Shown here piece after piece: positions 7,765 to 64,000 of a DNA stretch of 64,000 nt. Source of the DNA: Cetorhinus maximus (taxonomy: Eukaryota); assembly GCF_964194155.1 (NCBI RefSeq), contig NC_135895.1, forward strand, positions 30,876,001-30,940,000, given 5' to 3'. The translations under genes were made by a program, and so were the position numbers. The notes under the pieces are model-generated. The model was not told where the DNA came from and did not search any database. It worked only from the letters and a program-made list of their open reading frames with translations. Numbering within the stretch: the stretch's first letter is position 1; each line of letters opens with the position of its first letter.

Positions 7765-8693
7765 GTAAAAGCAAAAAACTGCGGATGCTGGAAATCCAAA
7801 ACAAAAACTAAAATAAAAATTCCTGGAAAGACTCAACAGGTCTGACAGCATCTGCAGAGAGGAACACAGTCAACGTTTCGAGTCCGTATGACTCAACAGA
7901 ACTAAGGAAAAATAGAAGAGAGGTGAAATATAAACTGGTTTAAGGGGGGGGGGGGGGGGGGGAGGCACAAGTAGAGCTGGATAGAGGGCCAGTGATAGGT
8001 AGAGGCAAAAAAGAGATTGCCAAAGATGTCATAGACAAAAGGACAAAGAGGTGTTGACGGTGGTGACATTAGCTAAGGATTGTGCTAATAGGTGACATTA
8101 AGGGTAGAAAGCAGGACGAGCAAGGTACAGATAGCCCTAGTGGGGGTGGGGTGGGGTGGGGGGGAAGGGATCGAAATAGGCTAAAAGGTAGAGATAAAAC
8201 AATGGATGGAAATACATTTAAAAATAATGGAAATAGGTGGGAAAAGAAAAATATATATAAATTATTGGAAAAAGGGGAATCGGAAAGCGGGTGGGGATGG
8301 AGGACAGAGTTCATCCATTGTTTTATCTCTACCTTTTAGCCCATTTCGATCCCTTCCCCCCACCCCACCCGGGCTATCTGTACCTTGCTCGTCCTGCTTT
8401 CTACCCTTAATTAGCACATTCCTTAGCTAATATCACCACCATCAACACCTCTTTGTCCTTTTGTCTATGACATCTTTGGTAATCTCTTCTTTGCCTCTAC
8501 CTATCACTGGCCCTCTATCCAGCTCTACTTGTCCCCCCCACCCCCAACCGTAAACCAGCTTATATTTCACCTCTCTTCTATTTTTCCTTAGTTCTGTTGA
8601 AGAGTCATACGGACTCGAAACGTTAACTGTGTCCCTCTCCGCAGATGCTGTCAGACCTGCTGAGTTTTTCCAGGTATTTTTATTTTTGTTTTT
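7765..8693. mobile_element. Penelope-like element ends arranged as an inverted pair
   Basis: ~7795-8215 is the reverse complement of ~8313-8693; flanked by GTTATGA at 7758-7764 and 8694-8700. Confidence 0.8.
8590..8628 (+). ncRNA. Minimal hammerhead ribozyme motif, CUGUUGA core variant
   Basis: agtt-CTGTTGA-a-gagtc(atacg)gactc-GAAA-CGTT-aact. Confidence 0.55.
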
Positions 8694-8953
8694 GTTATGA
8701 CCGGTTATGGGGATTGGGCTGGAAATTGGATTTGAGGCCGAAATGAGATCAGCCATGATCGTATTGAATTGCGGGGCAGGCTCGAGGGGTTGAATTGCCT
8801 ACTCCTGCTCCTAGTTCTTATTGGATTGGCAGCTGGGAAAAATCTCCCCAGGACAGTTCTCTTTTCGGGTTTTTACAAACTGAATGCAGCGAGACGAGAT
8901 GCAATGACATCTGCACAGAGCAGTGGCAACTAGGCTGGCTGGCTGGTCTGTAC

Positions 8954-9736: not shown

Positions 9737-11586
9737 GCTCTGCATTTCATCCAAGTAATTTAATCTAGTGGGAGATTAAGCAGCAAACGTAACGGCAACG
9801 TTATTTTTATCCCTAATGTAAAGAACGAGTTTTGGGAAAATGCAAAAAGGGCCAAACGGATTCAAAGCTGAACTTTTGATTTAAATGAAGAGCAGACTAT
9901 CAGTGAATCTTAATCTGGGTCTTTTTGACGTAAAAGCTGTATCTGAAACCCTAGAGTAACATTTGAATGCTTTATTTATCAAGGAGTTTTGAAAAATCTG
10001 TTTCATGGGAAATGTGTTCTTCAACAAAGGAATTGTGGTTTTGTTAAACTCTCGATAACTTAATGACGACTGCAACAGCCTCAGAAAATGGATTATCCTC
10101 ACACAGTTCCCGTTGGCCATCGTACTTTTACCTCCCACCCCCACAACACACTCATCTACAAACACCACCCCCACCCCAAGGTCATTTTTCAGATCCATTT
10201 AATGCTGATAGTTCTCCAGAGTTTAAAATTGTTGATCAAAACCTAGATGAGCAACTCCGGTCTATCTTTTAATGAAAGTTGAAACTGCTGGCAATACACG
10301 TCGTGCAGAATCTGCAAAAAAAAGAGGTTATAACCCTTTGGTCAGATTTCAAAACTAGAAGATAAGCAATCTGGAAGAAAAGAGGAGGGGGGTGGAGAAA
10401 TGGTAAAAAGCAAGAAGCGGGAATGCTAAGTTGCGTCACAAAAAAAGCAATTAATACATGTAATAACCAGCGAACAGTGTAATTGTTTATCAGTTTAAAA
10501 ACAGAAAATGCTGGAAACGCTCAGCAGCGTCAGGCAGTATCTGTGGAAAGAGAAGTAGAGTTAACGTTTCAGGTCGATGACCTTTTATCAGAACTCTGTG
10601 AGAACTGAGCGAAACGTAGTACTATATAAAAAAGAAGCTGGAGTTTCTGGTGTGGAGTTCAAGTCATAATTAAATAAGCTGCATTGTTTAGAGTCAACAG
10701 TGCATGAGTGAGAGCTTCAGTAATCTTAGAGATGAAGTAGGGACAGAGGCACTTGGTGTTACGGAGGTGAAATTAGATAATTTTGCTGATGGATAGTATG
10801 ATGGTTTGAAGCTTAGATCAGGGTGAATAAGGACACCAAAGCCGTAAAGATGGAGTTGGGGCTAGGATGCAGCATTTCTGACAGGATCAATCAATTTTCA
10901 TAAATCTAAATAATGTTGCCAAGTGTTAGTAGTTGAGGATGACATAGGATCCAGAATGGAAAAGGTGATACGGAGCAGAAGGAAAAGCTATTGCAGAAAA
11001 TCTGATGACTATGTTGAGATAGCCAGGACCATGTTTACGTTGAATTACATGGAATAATAGGACAAAAACAGGCCATTCGGCCCAATGAGAGCATACCGGC
11101 ATTTATGCTCCATTCAAACCTCCTCCCATCCTCCCTCATCATATCTTAGATTTGCTTCCTTCTCCCTCATAGGCTTACTTAGCTTCTTCGTAAGTGCATT
11201 TAAAATATTTGCCTCAACGCGAGTTCCACGTTTTCACCACTCTGGATGAAGATGTTTCTTCTCAATTCCCTATTTGATTTCTTGGTGACGATCTCATATT
11301 GGTGGCGTCTAGTTTTATCTTTCTCCTCAAGTGGAAACACTTTGTCTCCTCTTATCAATACCTTTCATAATTTTAAAGTTCTCAATTAGTCTCTTCAGAA
11401 TTTATTTTGGAGGGCACATAAAATTTGCAAATATATTTTGCCTTTTGCTAATCACAGATCGTGTCAGAGATAACCGTTTTGGTTTAACTTTCTTTCGGCA
11501 TTTCACTTCCCTTCCATGTCTTCTCTGTAACTTGGTGCAGGATTTCTTCCTTCCTTGGTTGTGTGATGCCATCTGTGCCAATTGCC

Positions 11587-17100: not shown

Positions 17101-17661
17101 AGGGAGGTAACTGTCTCTCTCTGTAAGCGATGGTGCACATAAAGCCAACAGAGAGAAGGTAAACTAAAAAAAATCTGTTCTACAATTTTTGCAACTTGAG
17201 TTGCTAATTATTTCTTTACAGTAATTGACCAAATTAAAGCCACTTAAACAGCCAATTTAGTTATTAGGATGTGGGTAAGACTGATGAGATTGTACACTAT
17301 CTATAGTACTGTCCATCACTAATTAAAGATCCTTAGGTACTATTTGAAAAAGAAAAGGCAGTTTTTCCAGTTGTCCTGGCCAACATTACTCCTCAATCAA
17401 CATTATTAAAATCAGAGTAACTGGTCATTTATTATTATTTGTGGAATTTCACCATGGACAAAATGGTTGCTGCATTTCAAATAAAATTCTGATGGGAAAC
17501 ACTTCAAGACATTTCTGAGATGTGCTTGGGCCCTTTATTCCCCCATTTCTGTGTAGAGCTTTCAAATGTCAATGATAAATATGGGAATTTTGTGTGTTTT
17601 TTGCTTGGTATTTACTGCTGTTGTTCATGTACCAATATGAATTTAGACAACTCAATTTGCT

Positions 17662-17775
17662 GAATAAAAGCAGTTCTGAAGAAGAGTCATATTCAACTCG
17701 AAACATTAACTCTGTTTCTCTCTTCACAAATGCTGCCAGACCTGCTGAGTATATCCAGCACTTCGTTTTTTTTTT
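17662..17775 (+). mobile_element. Short Penelope-derived hammerhead element immediately 3' of the TTC4 stop codon
   Basis: agtt-CTGAAGA..GAAA motif followed by the PLE tail; flanked by TCAATTTGCT at 17652-17661 and 17776-17785. Confidence 0.7.
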
Positions 17776-17875
17776 TCAATTTGCTTGAAGTTTCTTTTCC
17801 GATAAAAAGTCTCTAGAGAATGATGAACCTCTAACCAGAATTAGGATTCTTGGATTACCAGCCTTCACAACATAT
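17776..17875 (-). CDS. TTC4: TTC4 exon 10 (last coding exon)
   Basis: Acceptor ctttttgtgtctAG; (R)YVVKAGNPRILILVRGSSFSRDFLSEKKLQAN*; phase continuous with exon 9. Confidence 0.85.
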
Positions 17876-18328: not shown

Positions 18329-18620
18329 GGAGCTCCCGTGGCACAGTGGGTAGTGTTCTGAGCCAGAAGCTCCAGGTTCAAGTCCCACCCAGGTCTTGAT
18401 GGCCAAGGAAGGTGCAATTATAATGTGGCCAAACAGGTTGAGTATCAACCTGCAAATCCTTCCAAGACATGCCAATGGCAGGTGGTCAGAGCAGGAGAGA
18501 TTCCTGGTCAGTTATGTGATGGAAAAAACACTGGGGCCTCTACCATCACTATCCATAGCTCCAGAGTATAACATGCATGTAAAAGTGCATGTTGCGACAT
18601 CAACTTGAACTCAGGGTGAA
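18329..18620 (+). mobile_element. tRNA-derived SINE
   Basis: A box TGGCACAGTGG and B box GGTTCAAGTCC; a related copy lies on minus at ~50540-50672, with fragments at ~48975-49120. Confidence 0.65.
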
Positions 18621-25632: not shown

Positions 25633-25693
25633 ACAAAACCCAGCCCACCCCACTTCCACAGCATTAGAACTGGCAAGTAGCAACCAGCCATAC

Positions 25694-25855
25694 CCAAGTA
25701 AAATTGTGCTGCAGCTCTGTTCGTATGGAGTATGACATTCAGCTCAGAGTCACTGCATTTTCTCTTCAGCCCCTCGGTGTAGGAGATGACAGCTTTCTTA
25801 TAATTCTTTTCCTTGAAGTAATGATTTCCTTCATTCTTGTATGTTTTTGCAAGCT
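25694..25855 (-). CDS. TTC4: TTC4 exon 3 (TPR)
   Basis: ttttacAG|LAKTYKNEGNHYFKEKNYKKAVISYTEGLKRKCSDSELNVILHTNRAAAQFYL|GTATGG; 162 bp. Confidence 0.94.
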
Positions 25856-26396
25856 CTGTAAAATGTAATTTAAAAGAAAAAGTCTAACACAATCTATAAA
25901 TCTAGAAATTGCCATCCAGCCTGACTAAAAATACTGATTTATCATTTAATCTCACATGGAGGCCCAAAATGTTTCAAAAGGAGCTAATCAGTAAATTAGA
26001 AGCTTGCAGCATTATTCTGGGAGAGTTGGCATTAAGATTCTCCCCAATGATTTTCCCATAAACAGTTTCAGTGTTTCCAATACTGATTACATAAATGAAT
26101 AAACATTCATTCAGTAATTTAATTAGAAATCAGTTCACAGGAGTACTCTTTTTCTTTGGAATCTTGTGACAATATATATAGGATCAGGCCAAAAGACCAC
26201 AGTGCACAAAATTCATCACATTACTAGCTTTCAGTTTTATACATGTTAACATTGAATGTCCTGTCAATGACAGAAAATTTAATTCCTTGGGTTTCTGTGA
26301 GGAAGGAATCTGCATGAAGGCAGTTGGTTGTCTACAACATTTGCAAATTGGAATGGGTTTTGCTTTTACTTTTTTGTTTGAAATGAACTCCAGTAC

Positions 26397-26514
26397 CTTC
26401 TGGAGATTGATCCTCATCATACAATATTGTCTGGATACAGGCAAGTTCTGGATGCTCCAAAGGATCAAGTTCTTCAGGTGCCTTTTTCATAAACATTGGA
26501 ATCTTGTCAAACTC
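26397..26514 (-). CDS. TTC4: TTC4 exon 2
   Basis: tttttcctgtccAG|EFDKIPMFMKKAPEELDPLEHPELACIQTILYDEDQSPE|GTACTG; 118 bp. Confidence 0.93.
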
Positions 26515-26899
26515 CTGGACAGGAAAAAAAAACAAATACCCATATGGTCAGCAAAGAAATTGCCTTTGGATTTCTCAACATTTAGCTGAAAGGAATTGCA
26601 CTGAATCCTAGATTGGATGTCAGTTAAATAAGACAAAAGAGGTGTTTAAGAGGTAGATCTAGGTGCCATCAGCATACATATGAAAGCTATCCACGCCTGC
26701 AGATGAAGAAAGGGGCCACCTCTAGATCCTTGAGGGGCAGAAACAACATTAGTTACATGAAGAGGCATCATTGTTGAAGATGTTCTGACAACAATTATAT
26801 AAGCAGGACTGAAACCAAGTGAGAGGAATCCCACTGAGCTGGAGCAGGCATTGGAGGAGGACAGCATGTAATACGTATGCAGGAGGTCACACAGAACAA

Positions 26900-31400: not shown

Positions 31401-31661
31401 TTACTCTCTATTTAAGGTGCTGAAATCTGCAGCATTCATGTCTTGGAAAATCATGGATCAAGACATTAAAAGGGGCGAGAGTCCTGACTCCTTACTGTGC
31501 TCAGTGTTCATGCACAGTGTGCGCAAAGTAGTACTGAAATCTCCATAGTGCCTAAGGAACGTTGTATTCGAGTAAAAAATGTAAATAGTTCATAAACTAG
31601 TTACACAATAAAATTTAGAAATGATTAGTCAATAACTAGGTAAAATGTTCAAATGATTATT

Positions 31662-31706
31662 CAGAGTTCTGATGAAGAGTCATACGGACTCGAAACGTTA
31701 ACTCTG
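31662..31706 (+). ncRNA. Minimal type-I hammerhead ribozyme with intact core
   Basis: cagagtt-CTGATGA-a-gagtc(atacg)gactc-GAAA-CGTT-aactctg: 7-bp helix I, canonical CUGAUGA/GAAA core, 5-bp helix II, palindromic ACGU in place of helix III. Confidence 0.75.
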
Positions 31707-31792
31707 TGTTTCTTTCCACAGATGCTGTCAGACCTGCTGAGTTTTTCCAGCAATTTTTGTTTTTGATTCAGAGGCATACATGGTTTAAGTAT

Positions 31793-32029: not shown

Positions 32030-32577
32030 CAAAACAAAAACAAAATTACCTGGAAAAACTCAGCAGGTCTGGCAGCATCGGCGGAGAAGAAAAGAGTTGA
32101 CGTTTCGAGTCCTCACGACCCTTCAACAGAACTGAGTATAGTTAGGAGAGTGGTGAAATATAAGCTGGTTTAAGGTGGGAGGGGGGAGAGAGAAGTTGAG
32201 GGGGATGGGGTGGTTGTAGGGACAAGCAAGCAGTGATAGGAGCAGATAATCAAAAGATGTCACAGACAAAAGGATCAAAGAGGTGTTGAAGGTGGTGATA
32301 TTATCTAAGAAAATGTGCTAATTAAGAATGGATGGCAGGACACTCAAGGTACAGCTCTAGTGGGGTGGGGTGGAAAGACTGACAAGGTATTAGTTGTAGA
32401 TTTAAAAATAATGGAAATAGGTGGGAAAAGAAAAACCTATATAAATTATTGAAAAAAACAAAAGGGAGGGGGAAGAAACGGGGTGGGGATGGGGGGAGGG
32501 AGTTTAAGATCTAAAGTTGTTGAATTCAATATTCAGCCCGGAAGGCTGTAAAGTGCCTAGTCGGAAGATGAGGTGCT
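32030..32577 (-). mobile_element. Penelope-like 3' fragment nested just downstream of the Gypsy PBS
   Basis: Minus strand HLIFRLGTLQPSGLNIEF, then 3' UTR with hammerhead motif at 32095-32133. Confidence 0.8.
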
Positions 32578-37379: not shown

Positions 37380-38715
37380 GGTATGCAAATTGATATATAT
37401 TCTATAAAGTATATATTTTATACGTATGTTGCATACAGTGAGTCAAGGTCAAGGAGATTTTTCATCTCAAGTGTGGTTAGAGGGCAGGGAGATAATTGAC
37501 CCAAGATATGGAAGGAGGGGAAATAGAGCAGAGAAGGGGAGTAGGGGCACTGGCAAAATGGGTGAGAAGGGTGGGGAAGCAAGAATGCAAGGTAGTGAAA
37601 GAGGGAAGGGAGGAAATATATTATTACCCAGTCATCATTTTGAAAATGTTGTATGAACCTAACAACACTTTTAAACTATTTTTTTAAATAAAAGAACTGA
37701 GTGGTAAAGGGACCTCCACTTCTGACAGGTGGGTTTAAATTCAGCTGATGTCCAGAAAGTATTTTTTTTCTGGCAACTGAGTTTGAGCAATCCCAACTAA
37801 TCTTCTACTGGGTAAAGGCCACAGCATAAAACTAGTCATAGGTGTTGAACCCACTTAGAAACAGCAGCAGATTGACAGCTTGTGGGAAATGGAAATATCA
37901 CACAGCTGCAATAGAGGTAGCTTTATAAAGATAGTGTTAGAACACATCATTAAAACGGAACAGAGAAATTAATCTACTTTTAAACCATGCTACACATGAC
38001 CTAGAAATGTCTGATGCTGGGCGATAGTGGAAAACACACCTCTTATAATGTTGAAACAGTTTTCCAGGTAGGGTAGCAGAAGCCAAAATTTTAAACTCAG
38101 TGAAGCTGATAATCTCATGCAGGAATGTTCAATCTTTGGGAGTAATGTGCCATTCACAACAAACAAATGCACTGCATAGGGTTAACTCAATTTTGAGTAA
38201 GGAAGAATAACATCAGTTGACTGAATTAGTCAAATTCTGTTTCTACTGTAGGACACCGGTAATTTTCACCAGTGCTTTGGGATCCTATTCTATGATTCTG
38301 TCCATTTTTTTAATGGAAACTCCAAACCAATGTTTTTACCATGACACTTAAGCATTATACCTGACTCTTGTTTTCATTTAAAAGACATCGGAATATGCTG
38401 GAAATGCCAGTCAGGCCAGTCAGCATCCATATTGAGAAAAGGCAAGTTAACGTCAACAGTTGAAATAATTCATCAGAACTGGAAACTGAAAGATCAGCAA
38501 ACAGTTTAATGGAGATCAGCAAACAGTTTAATGGAGATGGGTAAAAAGAGGAGAAAAATCAACTAGAGAGAAATGTCTAACTGACAAAATGATGTACAGC
38601 TGCTTAAACCCAGCCTATCTATATTTATGGCCTCGCCATCAACCTTGCATCTTATGTGGCCCCTCTACTCCCTATTGTCCCAATCATGGTCATGTAAACC
38701 ACAGCTATTTACTTC

Positions 38716-38926
38716 TGTAAAAGCAAAATACTGTGGATGCTGGAAATCTGAAACAAAAACAAAAAAATAGCTGGAAAAACTCAGCAGGTCTGACAGCATC
38801 TGTGGAGAGGAAGACAGAGTTAACGTTTCGAGTCCGTATGACTTCATCAGAACTAAAGAAAAGTAGAAATGAGGTGAAATATAAGCTGTTTGAGGGTGAT
38901 GGGATAGGTGGAGCTGGATAGAGGGC
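38716..38926 (-). mobile_element. Penelope-like 3' end with hammerhead motif (38818-38854)
   Basis: Minus strand agtt-CTGATGA-agtc(atacg)gact-c-GAAA-CGTT-aact plus the PLE tail. Confidence 0.75.
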
Positions 38927-49486: not shown

Positions 49487-50939
49487 ACTGTCTTGTCATT
49501 GTTGACCACCTTTCTAACACCTCCATTTAAAATTCTTATCCTCATGTTTAAATCCTGTCATGGCCTTGCCCCTATCTCTATCATCTCCACCAAACCTCTC
49601 TGATCCTCTGACTCTGGCCTCTTTGCAACTCCCTAACCCGCATTCCCAGCCCCTTTGCTCCAACATTGACCTTCAGTCACCTAGATCTTAAGCTCTGGTT
49701 TTCCTCCCTAAACTTTCCACCTCTATGACCCTCTCTAAAATCCACCTCTGTGACCAAAAACATTCCTAATAGCTCCTTCTATGCTCATGACCCCATTTTG
49801 TCCGATTACCTCTCTGTGAAACTGAGACACTTTTTTACATTAAAGGCACTACATAAATATAACTTGCTGTTAGTCGCACACTGGTAAATATAAATGTTTT
49901 CAGGTCATTTCTCTCACTGACTTTCTATATGATTGGTGCATCTTTCATGTTTCCAACCCCTTGAAAATTTTCAATTCTGTCAAAGGATTTCACAAAAAAT
50001 ATTATTCTGCCTATTCACTTCACAGATGGTGACTGAACTGCTGTGTTTCAAGCATTTCCTAATTTTGTTCCAGATTTCAGAATTTGCAATCATTTTTCCT
50101 TTGTGCTTGCTCTCTCCCAATGAAATCTGTACTCCTTGGAGTTGTTGAATCATGCCATCATCACCTTTTTTATTTCTTTTGTTTCCCTATTTCATGTGCT
50201 TCTCCATTTTTTTAAAAAAAAACTATTTTTTCCACTTTTTTCCCCATTCCTTACTTTTTTTCCCCCATCCCTCTCCTTGAGCACCAACACAATTCCTATT
50301 CCTGCCCACCCCCATCTTTCTGCCAGACCCTGCATGTGACAATTTTTCTTTTCAGCTCTCTGCGCAAAGGCAGGTCCAATCCACAGTGCTACAACCTCTA
50401 CCAGGGGTAGGGCAAGGAGGCAGGACCCAAATTCACTCCAACTGGAAAAGGGATCAAACCCCACAACAGCCATCCAGCTAACTTACACTAATGGCAGGTG
50501 GTAAGAGCGGGAGAGATTCCTGGGCAGGTGGTATGTTAGATTTAAAATTTGATATTAAACCTGTTTTGCCACATTATGAATGCACCCATGGCCATCAAGT
50601 CCTGGAGTGGGACTTGAACCCAGAGCCTCTGGCTCAGAGCCAGTGACACTACCCACTGCACCACAAGACCATATGATGATAACCCAAGCCAAGCTGTGAT
50701 ATGTGAGAGAGAACAACATCTGCTGGTAGCCAATGGCCCACTGGAAACATGCAGCACTTCACCCCTTGTTATTTTTAATGCCATCTAGTAGATCAGTTGC
50801 TTTTACCAGTTGGTTTTCTTCAAGCAAGGGCTGTGTGATGGGCCATTTGAAATCATTGAAAGGACCAGATTCAGCCTGCTGGTTAGACAGCCTGCTCCAA
50901 CAGAAGAGTTAGGGTATCGGAGACCTCGGCTGACCTTCT

Positions 50940-51104
50940 CCCTCCCCCCCACCCCCCCCGTAAACCAGCTTATATTTCACCCCTTTCCTATTTTTACTTA
51001 GTTCTGTTGAAGGGTCATGAGGACTCGAAACGTCAACTGTGCTCTTCTCCGCCGATGCTGCCAGACCTGCTGAGTTTTTCCAGGTATTTCTGTTTCTGTT
51101 TTTG
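50940..51104 (+). mobile_element. Penelope-like 3' end with hammerhead motif (51000-51038)
   Basis: agtt-CTGTTGA-a-gggtc(atgag)gactc-GAAA-CGTC-aact. Confidence 0.75.
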
Positions 51105-53257
51105 TTCTCTCATCCTTGACTTTTTATATTCTTATCCTACTGGGAGCTCCAAGAATGATAGAATATACATTCATGCAGCGAGTCACCATTCTCAAGAAAG
51201 ACATTGTGGAGTGCTGGCAGGCAGTTTGCCTCATCCAGGGACAGGGAAAAATAGCCAGATGATTTATTGCCATGTCGCAACCAAGTTAACAAAAGCTAAA
51301 CAGCAACCTCCAGCCTGCCATCTATGTCTTGAAGGAAAGAAACAGCAGCCCCAATATTTCTTCACCCACCCCTCACCCGCCCCAGTTCCTTTCTGATGGC
51401 TCTGGACACTGACACCCAAAATGAAGTGTGTTTGTCCTGACCTCAGCATGCCTGAATTTCCTGTATTACAACAGTGACTAAACTTCAAAGGTACTTCACT
51501 GTCTGTAGAGCACTTTGGGGTGTCCTACAGTTGTGAAAGGTGCTATTTAAATGCAGGTCTTTCCTGTTCTTTCTTTTCCTTCACAGGCCTATAGCAAGGG
51601 GCCTGCATAATGTTTCCATGGCCTTCAGGCAGTTCTCAAAAAGATCAGGTCAGAACAAATCTGGACCCAGGGATCTATGGAGAGGCTGGGAGAGCAAGGC
51701 AGCATTTAAATGTTCAAGCTTCTCTCATTCCAAACCTTGTCATCCTCAGATTCTCTGATCCAAAGAAGGGGGAAACCAGAAATAAGATCGAACACCACCT
51801 TCTTCTGACGACCCTCAGATGAAGTTGGAGGAATATGAGGTGGAGCTTCGAATGCTGTCTCTCACCTCATGCCTGCTCTTGACCACAGATCTCCCCACTC
51901 TTAGCCATGATAATACCCAGGACAACAGAAAGGGGCCAAAGACCTGGCACCATAGATCTCTGCCTGTATTTCCCATGCTTTCCTATTTCCCGGATGCACA
52001 TCACAAAAATTAGCCCCAAAATGCTGCAACCACAGAAGAAGCAGTTGGAGTGGAAATAATAAACTCCTTGTTTAAATAAACGGCATTAGTAACTTAAAAC
52101 TGGACTTTGCTTCAAACGATCACTGACATGTAGGGTAGTATACGGCAATATAATAACAAGGCATAAAAGGAAATTGGAGGAAGGTATCCTCTTACTATTG
52201 ATATTTTCTAACATTGAATCAAGAGGCTTGAAATTCATCCTGAGCGATGGTGCAAAACGGGCAATAGTGGATTATGTTACAAGCAGCGCTGATATTCAGT
52301 TCCTGTGCAGTCAATGGAATGAAGCCCCAGGTGCTGCATATAATGAGCGGCTAATCTGATATCACCCTTTTTGTGCCACCACCCAAGACTAATTTCCACC
52401 TCAAGATCTTTCAAATTCAACGATACCTGACAGAATCTGATGATCTAAATGGTGGAGAAGCAGATGACAGCACAATGCATGTCTTCTGGAGGTTTTTCAT
52501 ATTAGCTTAGAGATTAGACTACCTGTAACATGTTCTAAATTAGTTAGAAAGTCTTGCAAGACTGTTCCAAGAATGACACAGAGAAACTAGGCAAAACAAC
52601 TTTCTTTAAAAATCGTTCCCATTTTACTCAGAGATGACATTCTCTGAATTCAGACATTACATTATCTGTGTAGCTCTCCTACTCCATAGGACACAGTGGA
52701 AATTAATTAACATATTAATATCGGTGTGAAATAAATAGTCGGCCACCAGAACAAGAACAATACACTTAGAATCAAGCCGTGATTGTGGAAGTGTGATCAT
52801 TCCAACAACACATCAAAAACAATTCAACAAACCTGCATGTTCAACACACGATACTTCTCATACAAGTTTTTTTTACAAATTACCAACATGCGTGTGTATA
52901 GTCCGAGATATTCTCGGTATAGTTTGTAGTTTTTATTGTGTTGACGGATGAATGGCTTTGGTCTGTTACTGATCCCATTGTCTGCAATCCTGGAGCTTCA
53001 ATTTCAATTGCTACACTGTATTCTCCAAGACAGTACATTGATTACATTTTTCTCACGAATGGTGAATCAAATAAAAACACGTCGACTGTTACTCTCTTTG
53101 ATAATCTTAACAACTCCCCCACAATAGGGAAACTGTGTAACTACACCATTGTACACATGATTTTTTTTTCTGTATACTTCCAAAAGACCCTGGTTTCAAA
53201 GGTCTAACAAGCCACATTAAGGCACTTTCACCGGCATAGGTGATCCTAAAATAATGG

Positions 53258-54670
53258 CTAAGCAGTCTTCACATTTCTCAGAAAGTCCAAGACACCTTCT
53301 TGCGTGAGAAAGATTGTCTTTCCATTATTTTGGCAGCTGACTTCAAAAACAGGTGGATCTTCCAAAACCCTCTTCCCTGCAATGACAACGTATGGGTAAC
53401 CCAGACGGCTGGCATCTTTCAATCTCTTGCCTATAGTCAGATGACTGCGGTCATCCAACAGCACCTCTCCGCGAAGCTGTGGGACAGCATCTACTAAAGT
53501 ATCATACAGTGCCTCCGAAAGATCCGTGATCAGTTCCTCCTTACTGCCTTTCTTAGGTGAAATGATGCAAACCTGGTAAGGGGCCAGGAGACTTGGCCAG
53601 CGAATGTCATCTTCAGTCGACAAAACCTCTATGGATGCAGCTAGTATTCGTGTGACCCCAAGGCCAAAGCAGCCCATCTCAGTTACAATGGGCTTGTTCT
53701 CAGCGCTGGAATATGAGGCACCTAAAATATATGAATACTTGGTCCCAAGGTAAAAGGTATGACCCACCTCAATGCCTTTACTTTCTCTCAACTTTCCATG
53801 ACACTGTGGACAGTTTGTTCCAGCATCCATTATTGCTTCGACATTGGCTGCAAAGTGGCAGTCAGAACACATTAAAAGGCGATCCTCCCCAATTTCTGCT
53901 GGCAGCTGGAACTCGTGAGACATTTTACCGCCAATACTGCCTGTGTCTGCCTGCACCTTTACAAACTGCAGTCCCAACCGCTCAAAGATGTGACTATAAG
54001 CATCAGAAACAAGGTTATAGGTCTCCATAGCAGCTTTTTCTGAGACATCGAACGTGTACATGTCCTTCATGTAGAACTCTCGTCCACGGAGCAAACCAAA
54101 ACGTGGCTTTGGCTCATCTCGGAACTTCCTTGTCACTTGGTACAGCATCAATGGTAGCTGTTTATATGAGAGATTACCCTGCATGGCAATAAGCTCTGTC
54201 ACCGCTTCCTCGTGTGTTGGACTTAAACAGTATTCCATGTTATGCCTGTCCTTCAGTCTGAAGAGTTCCTTCCCCAGGAGGTCCCAACGTTCACTGGTCT
54301 TCCACAGACTCGCTGATGTGAGGCTGGGCATATTCACCTTCTGGCCCCCAATGGATTGCATTTCCTCATCAATCACACGGACAAGTTTCTCCATGGCTCG
54401 GACTGTAAACGGTAGATAGTGAAAGCACCCTGTATTAGCTGGCTGAATGAGGCCTGCCTGAAGCATCAGTCTCTGGCTCTTGCAGCTAAGCTCATTGGAC
54501 CGGCAACCCCCAATCACTCTGTCTTCACGGAGATTCATAGGCTGAAACAGACGAGAGATCAATAGACGCTTGGACCTACCATGGTGATAATGGGACTTGT
54601 GTAAATGTAAGAAGTCACAGAACATTCTGTTGAACACTCGTCTTGAATATGAATGGATTGCCATCTCCAT
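53258..54670 (-). CDS. PARS2: Mitochondrial prolyl-tRNA synthetase, single coding exon, 470 aa
   Basis: Uninterrupted ORF with class II ProRS motifs LSPTHEE, YQVTRKFRDEPKPRFGLLRGREFYMKDMYTF, GIEVGHTFYLG, MGCFGLGVTR; basic N-terminal leader; acceptor ttttcctttctAG at 54696-54695; AATAAA at 52937-52932. Confidence 0.96.
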   Translation of the reverse strand: MEMAIHSYSRRVFNRMFCDFLHLHKSHYHHGRSKRLLISRLFQPMNLREDRVIGGCRSNELSCKSQRLMLQAGLIQPANTGCFHYLPFTVRAMEKLVRVIDEEMQSIGGQKVNMPSLTSASLWKTSERWDLLGKELFRLKDRHNMEYCLSPTHEEAVTELIAMQGNLSYKQLPLMLYQVTRKFRDEPKPRFGLLRGREFYMKDMYTFDVSEKAAMETYNLVSDAYSHIFERLGLQFVKVQADTGSIGGKMSHEFQLPAEIGEDRLLMCSDCHFAANVEAIMDAGTNCPQCHGKLRESKGIEVGHTFYLGTKYSYILGASYSSAENKPIVTEMGCFGLGVTRILAASIEVLSTEDDIRWPSLLAPYQVCIISPKKGSKEELITDLSEALYDTLVDAVPQLRGEVLLDDRSHLTIGKRLKDASRLGYPYVVIAGKRVLEDPPVFEVSCQNNGKTIFLTQEGVLDFLRNVKTA

Positions 54671-54789: not shown

Positions 54790-55830
54790 TTGGAGGAAAT
54801 TTCTGCTGATCCAGTACTGGTTGTCCGACAAGCAGTCTGATAATTTGGCAAAAGTGGAGGAGTTGAGAGAGTTGGGTGAAGAGGTACAGCTGGATATTTG
54901 TGAAAACTAACAGTGCATTCGGATGATGCTGCTGAGGGGCAGCATGTAGATGAGAAGTAGGAGTGGGTGAAAAGATAGATCCTGGAGGAAATGGTGCAGG
55001 GAGCAGGAGGTAAGCCATTTCTGCTGTTTCTCTGTAGATAGATAAGTTAGAACCACGAGAGCAGTTTCACCAAACAGTGGTGAGATGTTGGATGATGGTG
55101 TGGTCAACTGTGTCAAAGGCTGCACACAGTTCAAGAAGGATGAGGACCGATAATTTACTTTTGTCACAGTCACATACGATATCATTTCTGACATTGATAA
55201 GAGCTTTTTTAGTTCTCTGGCAGGGTTGGAAAGCTGAATTTGAAGGTTTGAACATGGAATTGCAGAAAAAATAGACAAAGATTTGGAAGACGACAACACA
55301 TTTAAGGACTTTGGAGAGGAAAGGGAGGTTGGAGATGGGATGATAGTTTGCAAAGGTTAGGGGGGTCAAGGCTTTTTTTGAGGGTTGATGACGGCAGATT
55401 TAAAGGAGAGAGGTACAACACCTGAAGAGAAAGAGAACCTTTGGCAATATTGGCTAATGTGGGGGCCAGGAGGGGAAGTTGGATTAAAGCAAAATACTGC
55501 GGATGCTGGAAATCTGAAACAAAAATTGAAAACGCTGGCAAAACTCAGCAGGTCTAACAGGATCTGTGGAAAGAAAAACAGAGTTAACCTTTTGAGTCCA
55601 TATGACTCTTCTTCAGAAGTTGGATGTCAGCAGTTTCGTGAAAATCGGATCGAGGAAGCAGGATCTGGCTCTCAAGGACAAAATGAGCTTGCTGAGGGCA
55701 TGAAGGGAGACTGGAAAGAAACTAGAAAAAGATTCAGGGAGATAGGAAGTTTGGCCCGGTGGGCTAGTGGAAGGGAGTTAAGGCGCAGACAAAATAAGCA
55801 AGCTTTCAGTCTGATTGAAATATGTTGAGG
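54790..55830 (-). mobile_element. L2-like LINE fragment in the PARS2 5' UTR intron, with a hammerhead-bearing insertion at 55485-55615
   Basis: ANYHPISNLPFLSKVL..VRNDI..LILLELCAAFDTVDH. Confidence 0.75.
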
Positions 55831-57030: not shown

Positions 57031-58693
57031 GTTATAATTTACAGCTCTTCAGTTTTACTTCCCAATGAGAAGTGCTGGTGATTTTATGAGAAATGTATCA
57101 CCCCAAACACCACAGGTTACAGGATGAATTGTCCATATAAACACAGCTATTTTACTTTGTCCTCAAAAACACCACTGATTTAAAAACAGAAACTGCTGGA
57201 AATACTCAGCAACCATGGAGAGAAAGAGCCTTAACGCTTCAAGTCCATGATCTTTCATCAGAATTGGGTTTGATTTATGCTGAAACTTGTATTGTGCCAG
57301 CAGATCACTCGGTTTAGCAATAAACTGTAGGGAAATTAGAGAAAAAATTCAAAAGGAAGTGAGGCTAGTCTTCTTGCCCAAAAATTGCAAACTGCTTTCT
57401 TCGAAGACATCAAATTCTGAACGGCATTTCAAACGGAGATAAGGCAAAACTTCACTTCCTATGCAGTGCACACACCTAGAAACTTATTTTCGGAAAATAG
57501 CCTGTAACTTGAAGAAAAGCGCTTTTAAGGGATACCTGCAAATAGACAGTGTGTCAGAGCATCATTTTCTCCAAAAGGCTAATCAAATGTGTACTGCAAT
57601 GTGTGTGAAAAATTGACCTGATTGAGCCACAACAGATTCTCAATAGAACGATTTTACCATTTTTAAAAAAAGATTGTTCGCGAATGTAAGAGGTGGTGCT
57701 TGATGTCGGGTGGCAGCGAGTGAACCTAATTTTGTGTATTTATATAATATTTGAGAGACAATGATGAGTTGCGGCTCCCAGGGACACACACTGAGACAAA
57801 CATCAACTGCAGCTGAAAGATCATCAACTCGGTGAAAGACGCTCTTTGGTCTGCCTGAAACTTGTTGGTCTTCCAGCGCAAAGTGTTGTCCCTGACCTAG
57901 TGTTGCAGACTGGCACATTATAAGGTCCAGAACTACGTGCTGAGGGATGCACTAAAGCTTGGGGCAGTTGCTGCAATGGGGAAAGGTCACTGTCTAAGAC
58001 CTTTCTGCCAAAGTGCACCAAGGGGCTGGGAAATGTATAGACCCCTTGGGCTGTACGGCTCACAATGATTGTCTGCATTGAATACTAATTGTATTATAAT
58101 TGTATTGAAGCACCTCAGAGTGCAACGTGATGTATGTTCATAACTCCAAACCCATTGCACTGTCTGACTGTAATGACCATATTGAAATGACTGTAATATT
58201 CATTGATTGTATTGAAGCACCTCATGATCCAAGTGTAAAAGTTAAATCTGATTGCACTTTTTGTGATGGTGATTTAGAAATGTTTTCTAATGTTCTTCTA
58301 GATATTTTATGAATAAAGTATATTTTTCAAAAAAAAAAGTTGTTGGTCTTGGACAGGGCAGGCTGTGCTGGGGTAGAGACCGTTATTCACCTCTTCTTGG
58401 AATGTGCCTTTGCCAGGAAGGTTTGGAGACAAATGCAGTGGTTTTTGTTGTGCTTCATCCCGAGCAACTGATACAGGACTCTGGGCTGTTCCCAGGGACG
58501 CACACCAAGACAAATACCAACCGCAGCTGATGGATCATCAACTCGGTGAAAGATGCTGTTTGGTCTGCCCGAAACTTGTTGGTCTTCCAGTGCAAAGAAT
58601 TGTCCCTGACTGAGTGTTGTAGACTAACACATTCCAAGGTCCAGGACTACATGCTGAGGGATGCACTAAAGCTTGGGGCAGCTGCCACAAAGG

Positions 58694-58791
58694 GTTCTGA
58701 AGAAGAATCATACAGACTCAAAACGTTAACTCTGCCTTTATCTCCACAGATGCTGTCAGACCTGCTGAGTTTTTCCAGCAATTTTTGTTTT
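58694..58791 (+). mobile_element. 98-bp hammerhead mini-element with 11-bp TSD inside a Tx1 copy
   Basis: TGCCACAAAGG at 58683-58693 and 58792-58802; the insert begins gttCTGAAGA. Confidence 0.8.
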
Positions 58792-61700
58792 TGCCACAAA
58801 GGCACAATGGGGAAAGGTTGCTGTCTAAGACCTTTCTGCCATAGTGCACTGAGGGACTGGAAATTATATAGACCCCTCGAGCCGTATGACTCAGAAGGAA
58901 TGTATGCAGTATTATAATTGTATTCAGTATTACAATTGTATTGAAGCACCTCAGAGCTATGTAGAAAAGTTGAATATGATTGCACATTTTGTGATGGCCA
59001 TTTAAAAACGTTTTGTAATGTGCATCTCTACAACCCCCGTGTCCCTGTTGCTGATGTGCTCACCTTGTACATCGACAAGGATGGGAACTGCTCCAAAGTC
59101 AAAGACACCTTCAGGATTTGGACCAGAAAACGCCAGGTCAAGGTCACAGTCAAGATGGATGGTAAGGGAGCAATCCTCATCCCTCCTTCCAGCTTCAATA
59201 TTGGGGGAAGCTGTGACTACCTTATCTATGCTGGGTAGCCCAAACTTTGTCACTCATGTGGCAAATCTAGTCATGTGGCAGCCAACTGTAGCGCCGTCCT
59301 CTGCAAGAATTGCAAACAGGAAGGGCACCAGACAAAGGACTGCAAACAGACTAAGTGCTGTAACCTGTGTGGCGAGGCAGGCCCCCTCTACAAGACTTGC
59401 TCCTCATTGGTTTTGGCAACCTGTGCATGTGAGGCAGCGTTTGGGGCAAGTAGATGAACTGGTCAGTGTCTCTACCACCAAGGACACTTGCAAACCTCCA
59501 CCCACCAAGGCCTCCAGTGAGCACAATGGGACAAAAGAGGAGACAGAGAGAGACAAGACGAAGGGGAACATTGAGGCAGCAGACTGCCAAACAACTGCAT
59601 TGCCCCCTGAACCTCCCACTCCTCAGCAGAGTGAATCAATGGAGGATGATCCAGCAGACAATCAACCGGGGAAGTGGCAGCTGGTGAAAAGGACCAAAAA
59701 GTAGGGGCTAAGAAGGGACCAAGCCACCTCGCAGACGAGTGGCAAGAGTCATCTCCCATCTGACATGGATGACAAGGGCTGCTGCTCTTCGAATGAAGAA
59801 GGGCAAGGGCGGCACCAACAGAAGAAGCGGCAAAGCTCCAGGGAGCTGGAGGAGACACCCGAGCTCCAGAACATTAGAGACAATGAAAAGACCAGTGCAT
59901 CCCAACTTCACCCTCAACTTGAAGAGGCCAGCGCACCCCAGCCCCAGGAAGCTTGGAGCAGTAAAGCAGTCAGCACACCCCAGCTCCGGGAAGTCGGGAG
60001 CAACAACGGCCCGGAAGGGGAATGGATTGGAGAGGCTTCTCCAACAGAGAATAACTCAAACCTCGCCCCTCGCATGAAGGCCCCAATGCCACCTGAGTGG
60101 AACATCTCCAATGGGGCGGTACGGGGTGGTTTCTTCAGTCCATCCAATGTGAGACAATTTGTGAACACTATGGGTATGCAGGAGCAGACCAAAGGTCTGA
60201 AATTCTCAAAGACAACAGGTTTGGTAAGTGGCAAAATGCTTTAAAAATGGGGATAAAGATTGTATCCATTAACATGCATAGCGTTAAATCTAACGTGCGA
60301 TGTGTTGACCTGGTCATCAGATGTGAGGCACTCTCCGTGTTGCTGTACGTGGCACAGGTCTGGCCCATTCCTCACTCCTGTGCGATGGCGATCACCCGAA
60401 CCATCTTTTGCTTTACCTGGAGGTCAAAAATGGATCATGTTTGCAGGGACATGATGTACAAGCCTCTAGCTAAAGGGGGAAAAAACTTGCCCTACATCGC
60501 CCTCATCCTGATGGCCACCTTTGTGTGTGGCTGCACCAAGCTGTGCATAGACCCTCAGTATGCAAACACCAAGTGTCACTACGTGCTGAGGTTCTACCTG
60601 TCCCCGGTGTTGCGAAGGATGGGTCTGGCCATGCTGCCTCGGAACGCTCCAAGTAGTTGGACCGTGCCGTACCACCTGTCCCTCGTGGAAAAATTTATGT
60701 AGAGAAACACCTTTGACCACAAGTCCATCAGGCAGTGGTCTGCATGTTTCATCCTCGAGATTGTGCAGGAAAAGGACATGGTGGGATCCTGTTGCATGGT
60801 TCCCTGAAAAGACAGTCAAAGTCAATTAGCAGAATGCCTCATCACCAGAACTTTCAAACAAGCAGTGGAAAAATTTATGTAGAGAAACACCTTTGACCAC
60901 AAGTCCATCAGGCAATGGTCTGCACATACTGTCCTAGAGGCCTTGAGGGAAAAGGAGATGGTGGGTCCTGTCGGATGGTTCCCCGAGCAGATTGTCAAAG
61001 TCATTTGGCAGGATGCTTCATCGCCAGAACTTTCCAACAAGTACCAAGATGTAGCTTGGCTGGTGGTGAGAAAGGCCTTCCCCGTCAGATCCTTCCTACA
61101 CGCCAGGAGTCTCACCTCCTCCGCACATTGCCCTCGAGGTGGCTGTGGTGGGAAAGAGGCCATTGTTCACCTCCTTGTGGAATGTGCCTTTGCAAAGAAG
61201 GCCTGGAGAGAGATGCAGTGGTTTTTGTCAAGGTTCATCCCGAGCCGTCCTGTGACACAGGACTCTGTGCTCTACGAGCTGTTCCCAGGGACACACACCG
61301 AGACAAACATCCACTGCAGCTGGAGGATCATCAACTCAGTGAAAGATGCTCTTTGGTCTGCCCAAAACATGTTGGTCTTCCAGGGCAAAGAACTACGTGC
61401 TGAGGGACGCACTAAAGCTTGGGGCAGCTGCCGCGAAGTGCACCGAGGGGCTGGGAATTGTATAGACCCCTCAGGCTGTATGACTCACAATGAATGTATG
61501 CAGTGAATGCTAAATGTATCAGAATTGTATTGAATCACCTCAGAGCGCAACATGAGCTACGTAGATTACTTAAATATCATTGCACTGTCAGAGGGTCTGT
61601 TATGACCATTTTGAAATGTCTGTAATGTTCCTTTGATTGTATTGAAGCACCTCAGGGTGTGACATAATCTATGTAGAAAACTTGAATATTATTGTACTTT

Positions 61701-63087
61701 TTGTGATGGCCATTTTGAAATGTTTTGTAATGTTCTTTCAGATATTTTTTGAATAAAGTATATTTTTGAACAAAAAAGGAGCCATTTGCAGACATTCCAA
61801 GGTCCAGCACTAGGTGCTGAGGGATGCACTAAAACGTGGGGTAAAGGCGCAATGGAGAAATATTGCTGTCTAAGACCTTTCAGCCATAGTGCATTTAGGG
61901 GCTGGGAATTCTATAGACCACCTTGGGCCGTATGACTTACATGTAATATTTACTGCATACATTCAATGTATCACACTTATATTGAAGTACTTCAGAGTGC
62001 ATCATGATCTATGTACACATCTTAAATATCATTGCACTGTGATGACCATTTTGAAATGTTTGCCATGTTCTTTCAGATATTTTATGAATAACGTATATTT
62101 TTGCAACAAAAAAAAGAGCCATTTCTGGCCAAGGTCATTGCGAATCAGGTCAAGTCTGCTCTGGAGTCAGTGATCCACTCTGACCAGACCTGAACCATAC
62201 CTGGAAGAAAGATCTCCGATAGGCAACCATATCCCTGAGTAGCACAAGACTATGTACGGAATAGGGGTGTGGACCACTGCCTCATCAGCCAGAACCAGGA
62301 GAGGGCCTTTGACAGAGTATCGCACACCTACATGAAGAATTCGTTCTCCAAAATGGGGTTTGGGGAGGTAATCCGCAATTAGATCCAGCTGCCCTACACA
62401 AACATCAGTAGCACAGTTTCAATGTGTGGTAATCTGAAACTTTTCCGATCAAATCTGGAGTCAGGCATGCCTGCCCTCTCTCCCCTGCCCTGTTCATGTG
62501 TTACATAGAACTTTTTGCTGAGTCCATCAGGAAGAATTTGTGTATGAGGAGTGATGATCCCCAGCAGTGGAGGCATGCAGGTCAAAGCCTCCAGGTACAT
62601 GGATGACATCACCGTCTTATGCTCGGATCCGCGGTCAGTGCTTAGACTGATGAGCATCTGCAACCAGTTTGAACTAGCCTTTGGTGCCAAAATAAACCGT
62701 GGCAAGAGTGAGGCCATTTTCTTTGGGAACTGGGCTGACTGACCCTTTGTTCCCTTCACAGTCAGGTCAGACTATCGAAGGTGCTGGGGAAACAGTTTGG
62801 AGAGCCTAGGGCATGTGCCAAAAACTGGGAGGAGCGTATACCAAGATGAGGAGGAAACTGGGCATGTGGGACTGACGATCCCTCTCCATTGCGGTTAAGA
62901 ACCTGGTCATCAGGTATGAAGCTCTCTTGGTGTTTCTGTACGTGGCGCAGGGGTGGCCTATACCCCGATCCTGCATTACAGTGGTCACTCGAGCCATCTT
63001 CTACTTCATCTGGAGGTCAAAGATGGATCGTGTCCACAGAGACAGCAAGTACAAAGCTCTGGATAGAGGAGGTAAAAACATACCAAA

Positions 63088-63183
63088 ACAAAAACAGAAT
63101 TACCTGGAAAAACTCAGCAGGTCTGGCAGCATCGGCGGAGAAGAAAAGCATTGACGTTTTGAGTCCTCATGACCCTTCAACAG
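63088..63183 (-). mobile_element. 96-bp hammerhead mini-element with 11-bp TSD inside Tx1 ORF2
   Basis: AACATACCAAA at 63077-63087 and 63184-63194; removing the insert plus one repeat restores GGKNIPNVTLIL. Confidence 0.82.
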
Positions 63184-64000
63184 AACATACCAAACGTCAC
63201 CCTCATCCTGATGGCCACCTTTGTGTGCGGCTGCATTAAGCTCTGCCTGGACCCTTGGTATACAAACGCTAAGTGTAGGTTCTACTTGTCCCCGGTGTTG
63301 CGAAGGATGGGTCTGGCCTTGCTGCCATGGAATGCTCAAAGTAGTTGGACCATGTCATATCAGCTGTCCCTCATGGAAAAATCTGTGCAGAGAAATACCT
63401 TTGACAACAAATCTATCAGGCAGTGGTCTGCATGTTTCATCCTCGAGATTGTGCAGGAAAAGGACATGGTGGGATCCTGTTGCATGGTTCCCTGAACAGA
63501 CAGTCAAAGTCAATTAGCAGAATGCCTCATCACCAGAACTTTCAAACAAGCACCAAGACCTAGCTTGGCTGGTGGTGAGAAGGGCACTCCCCATCAGATC
63601 TTTCATGCAAAACCGAAGTCTCTGCACCACCACAAGCTACCCTCAAATCAGCTGCGATAGGGAAGAGATAATCATACACCTCCTTCTAGAATGTGCCTTT
63701 GCAAAGTAGGTCTGGAGAGACATGCAGTGATTTTTGTCAAGGTTCATCCCTAGCAGCTCCATGACATAGGACTGTGCTCTACGGGCTGTTCCCAGGGACA
63801 CACACTGAGACAAACATCAACTGCAGCTAACACTGGATGAACTGACTAAGGTCCTCGAGCCCTTCGAGTAGAGTAAAACTCCTGGAAGTGATGGCTTACT
63901 GGCTGAGTTATATTCGGCTCTTTGGGACTGGATTGGCACAAATCTGCTAGAAGTGTATGAGAGTATCCTTCTGGCCGGAAACATGTCAGAATTTATGAGG

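Follow-up and report, generated by a model that had tools for sequence, protein, structure and literature searches.

Short hammerhead-headed insertions in Cetorhinus maximus as by-products of a Neptune-type Penelope-like element

A stretch of 64,000 nucleotides from Cetorhinus maximus, hereafter the window, holds several very short insertions made of a hammerhead-like motif and a tail, opening at almost the same base, which raises the question of whether they form a self-standing mini-retroelement family, as proposed by a first-pass annotation, or come from a larger element, and of what fixes their 5' edge. The short insertions, each a minimal hammerhead with its tail, represent the end module of a Penelope-like element (PLE) of Neptune type, and they are a real, measurable by-product class of a known element, not a new mini-element. 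Their 5' edge is also real, with approximately 35–40% of the young copies starting within one 6–8-base window.

The hammerhead module is present in 17 copies within the 64-kb window. All six direct repeats reported by the first-pass annotation were recovered, with spacings of 107, 109, 107, 141, 124 and 95 bp, the near-constant first three being thus confirmed. Taking the A of AGTTCTG (window 31665) as +1 of the module, the copies at 31659, 58683, 63077 and 55475 start at +1, +2, +2 and +3, respectively, which is 2–4 nt before the CUGA core, as had been noticed for these four. The first copy (forward strand) has the left target site duplication (TSD) ATTCAGAG at 31659..31666, whose last two letters are also element +1/+2 (microhomology), followed by the hammerhead motif (31665..31703), the leader/tail of the PLE (31704..31765), reaching the first U-rich 3' end at about +101, and the right TSD (31766..31773). 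The copy at 58683..58802 (+) covers +2..+99 with an 11-nt TSD and sits in another repeat, of which a paralogue lacks 117 nt at this site, 8 above expectation. At 63077..63194 (-), a copy of the GUC-site subfamily covers +2 to about +103, also with an 11-nt TSD, and the paralogous repeat at 60392-60576 represents the empty site, from which precisely the 107 nt of 63077-63183, the element with one TSD, are absent. The insertion is thus confirmed to the base at 63077 and approximately at 58683. The copy at 55475..55625 (-) runs from +3 to about +136, the second 3' end, with a 10-nt TSD, while the older one at 17652..17785 (+) has 10 extra letters ahead of an element starting at +1 and a 10-nt TSD. 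The sixth copy, at 57176..57277 (-), is diverged, starting at about +4 with an internal deletion, and an additional short copy at 10497..10595 (-) starts at +1 with no TSD of at least 8 nt detected.

The module reads as a minimal type I hammerhead for which self-cleavage is predicted, many of its cores and sites being non-canonical. Helix I pairs +1..+4 with +36..+39 (31665-31668/31700-31703 in the first copy, forward strand), the core CTGATGA occupies +5..+11 (31669-31675), helix II lies at +13..+27 (31677-31681/31687-31691), followed by GAAA (31692-31695), and the predicted cut falls after +35 (31699). Over 250 parsed motifs, pairing reaches 94–96% in helix II and 92–99% in helix I, with few compensatory changes; 52 of them carry the non-canonical core CUGUUGA, and the predicted cleavage site is GUU in 172, AUU in 37 and GUC in 31. 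The Rfam scan gave no hammerhead model match to the module, and its folding energy was not better than that of shuffled sequences (z -1.14, -0.74, +1.79 and +0.65). Elsewhere, at L217:1358-1570, a 38-nt piece of the hammerhead (about +8..+46) is repeated in tandem ahead of an inverted pair, possibly the birth of a micro-satellite from a ribozyme.

The parent is seen in the long copies, in which the module is preceded by a 3' UTR and the final part of a GIY-YIG domain, as in the 5'-truncated copy at 32031..32577 (-), having the GIY-YIG C-terminus, a 3' UTR with a TATA-like box, the hammerhead and the tail. The window also holds two long pLTR copies of this PLE in head-to-head inverted orientation (7765..8699) and two medium copies, one from about -72 with a full tail (38715..38926, -) and one from about -55 to -67 (50935..51106, +). 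In the 4.0-Gb host genome, a near-complete, frameshifted ORF (L084) has reading frames with a reverse transcriptase (RT), a CX4CxxC linker and, at the C-terminus, a GIY-YIG, the motifs being CNRRRCNTC in the linker and then CIRCSQC plus two histidines (CCHH); its Pfam GIY-YIG match is weak (E 6e-4, below the cut-off). Homologues of the parent ORF bear PF00078 and PF01541, the relatives being about 50% identical, and the nearest named proteins come from sharks and rays. According to PMC8557442, which like the other papers cited here is drawn on in excerpt, a CX2-5CxxC linker before GIY-YIG is the signature of Neptune/Nematis and is absent from Poseidon. By sequence, the parent has the features of an EN+ PLE of Neptune type, the linker motif being common to Neptune and Nematis; a Poseidon assignment was dropped on the same motif. 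It also has the partial tandem pLTR, the optional 30–40 bp tail and the inverted arms of such elements, and its pLTR carries a minimal hammerhead of type I. An N-terminal ORF probe found 29 other copies, eight of which carry the whole module approximately 700 nt upstream, running into the ORF, so the module serves as leader as well as 3' end in a partial-tandem PLE, with the ATG near +178. At two loci, L287 and L231:1074 (-), the +1 edge was seen by eye to be joined to the 5' part of the same ORF, which suggests template jumps past the RNA end.

Regarding the edge, 5' ends were placed by alignment to long references, all-against-all upstream matching being confounded by inverted arms, and 10 near-duplicate loci, 5 further rows and 3 rows without a tail were left out before the counts. 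Among 91 young copies (contig C1, exact match to +5..+39), 36 start at -3..+5, only 20 over the whole of -7..-300 and 35 further upstream, 14 of these last at the limit of the long references, so that the density of ends passes from about 0.07 to 4.5 per base at the edge; among the 36 edge copies, 24 stand alone, the other 12 lying next to an inverted arm. When copies were chosen by the tail pattern, blind to the head (30 + 20 copies), 17 of the 50 started at -6..+5, 7 at +6..+51, 6 at -100..-7 and 20 further upstream (binomial p 2e-12 for the peak). In the whole genome, exact matches decrease from 1654 to 1337, 1151 and 994 as the pattern grows from +5 to +2, +1 and -2, and approximately 40% of the 1,654 lose the parent sequence within six bases, compared to 8% of the long copies, 46 of 50 of which retain bases up to -2. 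The histogram of 5' ends thus bears out the earlier suspicion of a fixed edge instead of a smooth truncation. In 1.25 Mb of tiles including the window, with copies of all ages, 27 of the 121 scored matches end at -3..+4 and 46 at +5..+55, a count that leaves out 29 of 150 matches for low score or too little flank, and the peak is therefore blunter among old and inverted copies. The tiles outside the window contain 18 stand-alone edge copies per 1.19 Mb, corresponding to roughly tens of thousands per genome, a rough extrapolation because some tiles lie near chromosome ends and some of the 18 are without a clear TSD. One old short copy was multiplied by segmental duplication, with flanks in common (L182-L191, L193 and L194, mostly G000:C24).

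Direct repeats are well above chance as a whole, a TSD of at least 8 nt being present in 39 of 62 stand-alone edge copies compared to 16 of 300 mismatched flank pairs, and one of at least 10 nt in 29 of 62 compared to none of 300; in the 39 TSD-bearing short copies, the length has a median of 11 and a range of 8–21. With the module also found in long PLE copies, the short copies are thus separate, PLE-derived insertions as had been supposed, and each of the six copies named has its own direct repeat, although the 7-nt one at 57176 is by itself no better than chance, 57 of the 300 mismatched pairs giving 7 nt or more. Longer stand-alone truncated copies also carry TSDs of at least 8 nt (14 of 30). 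Short and long copies share two 3' ends, at about +100/+101 and about +136, used by 16 and 12 of 36 edge copies and by 30 and 18 of 55 long copies, respectively. At the 5' junction, 20 of the 39 short copies have a TSD that abuts the edge or overlaps it by microhomology, leaving no room for further cDNA, 14 have 1–10 extra letters and 5 have more; in the copies inspected, the extra letters are copied from the nearby flank or from an inverted tail. Fold-back pairs turning at or beside +1 were observed in L175, L088:959, L300 and L378, and two unrelated loci of the GUC-site subfamily, L228 and L238, share one short fold-back head, the joint lying at about +36..+39.

It is extremely unlikely that these copies are ordinary random 5' truncations with an edge created by how they were found. 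Truncation at the 5' end is typical of PLEs in the excerpted PMC8557442, older tile copies often end at +5..+55 and one set demanded an intact +5..+39, but the head-blind set gives the same two-sided peak and the density of ends jumps at the edge in the 91 copies; for young copies, random truncation is refuted by the 91-copy, tail-picked and nested exact-match counts. As marks of ordinary truncation, the first-pass annotation had named a smooth 5'-end distribution, which was not found, and interleaving of short with long copies, which was. The opposite proposal, a self-amplifying SINE- or retrozyme-like mini-element whose short copies are transcribed and yield more short copies, is very unlikely too, despite the high copy number in the tiles and the fact that the nearest neighbours of short copies are short slightly above chance (p 0.017 in one set; p 0.004 pooled, a test confounded by how the sets were sampled); the few stand-alone edge copies of the GUC-site subfamily (2 of 29 primary matches at +1) would also suit it. 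When 129 long copies and 39 short ones with TSDs were placed on a tree, the label changed 33 times compared to 35.3 when shuffled (81 of 500 shuffles as low); at the weak resolution of 95 alignment columns, with most forks open, the short copies form no clade of their own. No diagnostic column for short copies was seen within the evenly ascertained set, and all sampled subfamilies hold both kinds; neither the clade nor the diagnostic substitutions of an independent non-autonomous (SINE-like) family are thus present. Moreover, the copies have no private head, the unit forms no tandem arrays, and the ends lie away from the cut site. Together with the common 3' ends and the TSDs of long copies, this argues against the self-standing family, and it is concluded that short copies arise repeatedly from autonomous PLE lineages and are not a separate family.

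The edge is likely the transcription start of the PLE RNA, a prediction based on a TATA-like box about 30 nt upstream, on the YYAGTT context and on ORF-bearing copies that start there. TATA and initiator elements have known consensus sequences, separated by about 30 nt. In long copies, TATAAAT stands at -31 in the older subfamily and TATATTT at -29 in the younger ones, and +1 sits within the initiator-like YYAGTT. Of the 14 upstream sequence clusters, 6, comprising 113 of 122 copies, have TATAWAW with at most one mismatch starting at -33..-28, compared to none of the 14 at each of six shifted windows, with an A frequency of 64–71% at -28..-26. Among 15 copies running into the ORF, 3 begin at +1/+2, one of them near full length (L115, to at least +2656), 8 extend upstream and 4 start inside the leader. 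Against the promoter reading, the modal first matching base of 103 edge copies is +2 (36), not +1 (19), and 8 of the 14 clusters, whose copies are related by descent, fail the strict TATA test; the 8 of 15 ORF-leading copies that reach upstream of +1 require a second route. There is no excess of a cap-derived G, with 11 G compared to 8 A before A+1, and T22:G11:C3 compared to about 20:12:4 expected before G+2. A depth step at +1 in the RNA-like contigs X3, X5 and X9, and loose ends at +1, were rejected as evidence of a start, these being assembled contigs. In other PLEs, the excerpted sources give a TATA plus Inr-like motif for a rotifer pLTR (PMC3846280) and, for Drosophila virilis PLE, a start about 120 nt before helix I (PMC2377424).

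Other ways of setting the edge have to be weighed against a transcription start. A ribozyme-bounded RNA, one of the two origins suggested by the first-pass annotation, fails because the predicted cut lies at +35, which is 32–34 nt inside the edge, as that annotation itself had warned, and only 2 of the 50 tail-picked copies end in +30..+40. In one set, 8 of 29 primary matches have 5' ends at +36..+39, and this pile-up was also rejected as cut ends because the query began at +38, selecting such junctions. The -20..-1 region, being 65–90% pyrimidine and ending in YAG, is also readable as a splice acceptor, and the edge would then be a 3' splice site (YAG|TTCTG behind a polypyrimidine tract), with short copies coming from a spliced RNA or a splicing intermediate. 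The AG at +1/+2 is invariant, and the edge copies, with G at +2 in 73 of 103 and A at +1 in 44 of 103, resemble the known base composition of exon ends; in D. virilis, an intron is described as ending at helix I (PMC4209133, in part). Splicing is nevertheless unlikely, as the 62 stand-alone copies have no common upstream exon (the longest 5' suffix common to any pair is 9 nt) and no match above 8 nt ending at an element GT, 20 of 39 TSDs adjoin or overlap the edge with 14 more at most 10 nt away, and the branch-point zone at -40..-18 holds only 3 of 141 ends; a weaker point is that no joint into +3 is among those listed for the RNA-like contigs. Quite unlikely is also the other suggested origin, a structure-defined stop, where the RT, primed in the 3' pLTR of a long RNA, would stall by structure or a bound protein at the far edge of the hammerhead or its U-rich tract. 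The edge does coincide with the 5' strand of helix I, paired in 92–99% of the motifs, and at least half of the copies pass the site, as with a leaky block, but the RT would meet the 3' strand of the stem first, so that a block is expected on that side and +36..+39 would already be copied at +4. The module folds no better than its shuffles, a stall leaves the TATA-like box at -30 unexplained, and a promoter-defined start fits better.

Considering a transcription start at the edge, it is probable that the short insertions are the TSD-flanked first 100–140 bases of the Neptune-type end module, produced when the RT primes in the RNA leader and runs off the 5' end. The short copies correspond to +1/+3 up to about +101 or +136 of a module that flanks the ORF on both sides in long elements. 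Pol II would start at the A of YYAGTT, about 30 nt past the TATA-like box, so that hammerhead helix I would be the first four bases of the RNA. The GIY-YIG endonuclease would nick AT-rich DNA, the RT beginning at one of two U-rich internal sites, on a template that may be the full mRNA or the transcript of a solo 3' pLTR. On uncleaved, leader-primed RNA, the cDNA would stop at +1 and be joined through microhomology, locally templated bases or fold-back, the resulting stubs, without the TATA-like box, being probably dead ends. For long copies, the RT would have to be primed in the 3' repeat, make a jump, or copy a template that is circular or results from read-through. As described in the excerpts of PMC11167929, the Anolis Poseidon protein starts reverse transcription in vitro at two internal sites that are separated by one tail, depends on RNA extending past the start site, and acts mainly on uncleaved RNA. 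Extended across clades, from Poseidon to Neptune, priming at about +100 or +136 on a transcript from +1 would yield the stubs seen.

A more speculative extension, to be held as a tentative possibility, is that the PLE RT starts mainly in the leader, that mini copies are integrated strong-stop cDNA, and that long copies and pLTRs are made by a jump from +1 to the 3' repeat or through a dimer-cut circle. In retroviruses and LTR elements, minus-strand strong-stop DNA is a short cDNA that is primed internally and extends up to the RNA 5' end, thereby covering the terminal repeat. The resemblance is an analogy only, since here the cDNA would be target-primed and integrated alone, without a tRNA primer or integrase. 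Linkage between variant sites gave no clear break, among the sites listed, such as a strand transfer or the closing of a circle would leave at +1 or +35. If the strong-stop reading were true, the cap-proximal hammerhead would be a switch between short and long outcomes, and the ratio of short to long copies would preserve a fossil record of how often pLTRs were regenerated.

Truncated ends of PLEs, tails, inverted arms and minimal hammerheads standing alone have been described before (PMC8557442; PMC4209133; PMC3846280, each in excerpt). As in the EN+ Neptune PLEs of PMC8557442, the parent has an RT, a CX4CxxC linker and, at the C-terminus, a GIY-YIG, together with partial tandems, inverted arms, an optional 30–40 bp tail, a pLTR hammerhead and TSDs; the difference to their truncations is the concentration of starts in one 6–8-base window. 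No description of a 5'-end peak at a PLE hammerhead edge was found in the literature searched, subscription papers, Repbase and supplements being largely outside its scope. The solo minimal hammerheads of metazoan PLEs (PMC4209133) have the same motif, with no helix III, a palindromic centre and an unpaired base before helix II, and are mostly single, dispersed and ascribed to truncated PLEs, as here, whereas in the present copies helix I opens the insertion, with boundaries and TSDs mapped. Anolis Poseidon PAc (PMC11167929) likewise shows two 3' ends one tail apart, an uncleaved hammerhead that is kept and AT-rich targets, but belongs to another clade with its ORF starting inside the hammerhead, compared to an ATG well downstream here. 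Animal non-LTR retrozymes, as far as the excerpts of PMC7229834 and bioRxiv 10.64898/2026.07.22.740005 go, share the non-coding nature, the type I hammerhead, the PLE pLTR origin and the larger TSDs, but consist of tandem arrays with cleavage-to-cleavage monomers and circular RNAs. The present copies are single or head-to-head, with one minimal motif at the head and one 38-nt partial array (L217), and their 5' ends at +1..+4 do not bound a cleavage monomer.

How PLEs rebuild a promoter-bearing pseudo-LTR is stated as open in the part of PMC2377424 drawn on, and the sharp edge gives a hint as to their mode of copying. The accumulation of insertion ends, sharp to the base, at a predicted transcription start would be an in-genome read-out of the template 5' end, tying the in vitro internal priming of PMC11167929 (excerpt) to a countable product, and the model predicts a defined cDNA of about 100/136 nt. 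Many solo hammerhead motifs in such genomes would be explained as PLE by-products, and solo copies should not be annotated as a SINE or retrozyme family.

Besides the PLE, the window has a weak Rfam match to a CPEB3/HDV-like ribozyme at 18389-18463 (+), with 26 bits and E 0.012, below the gathering score of 35; the repeat holding it recurs at 50549-50664, and it could be the HDV-like ribozyme of another retroelement. Host exons were translated at 120-260, 25640-26520 and 53480-53700, all on the reverse strand, presumably of PIGB, TTC4 and PARS2, which their translations resemble.
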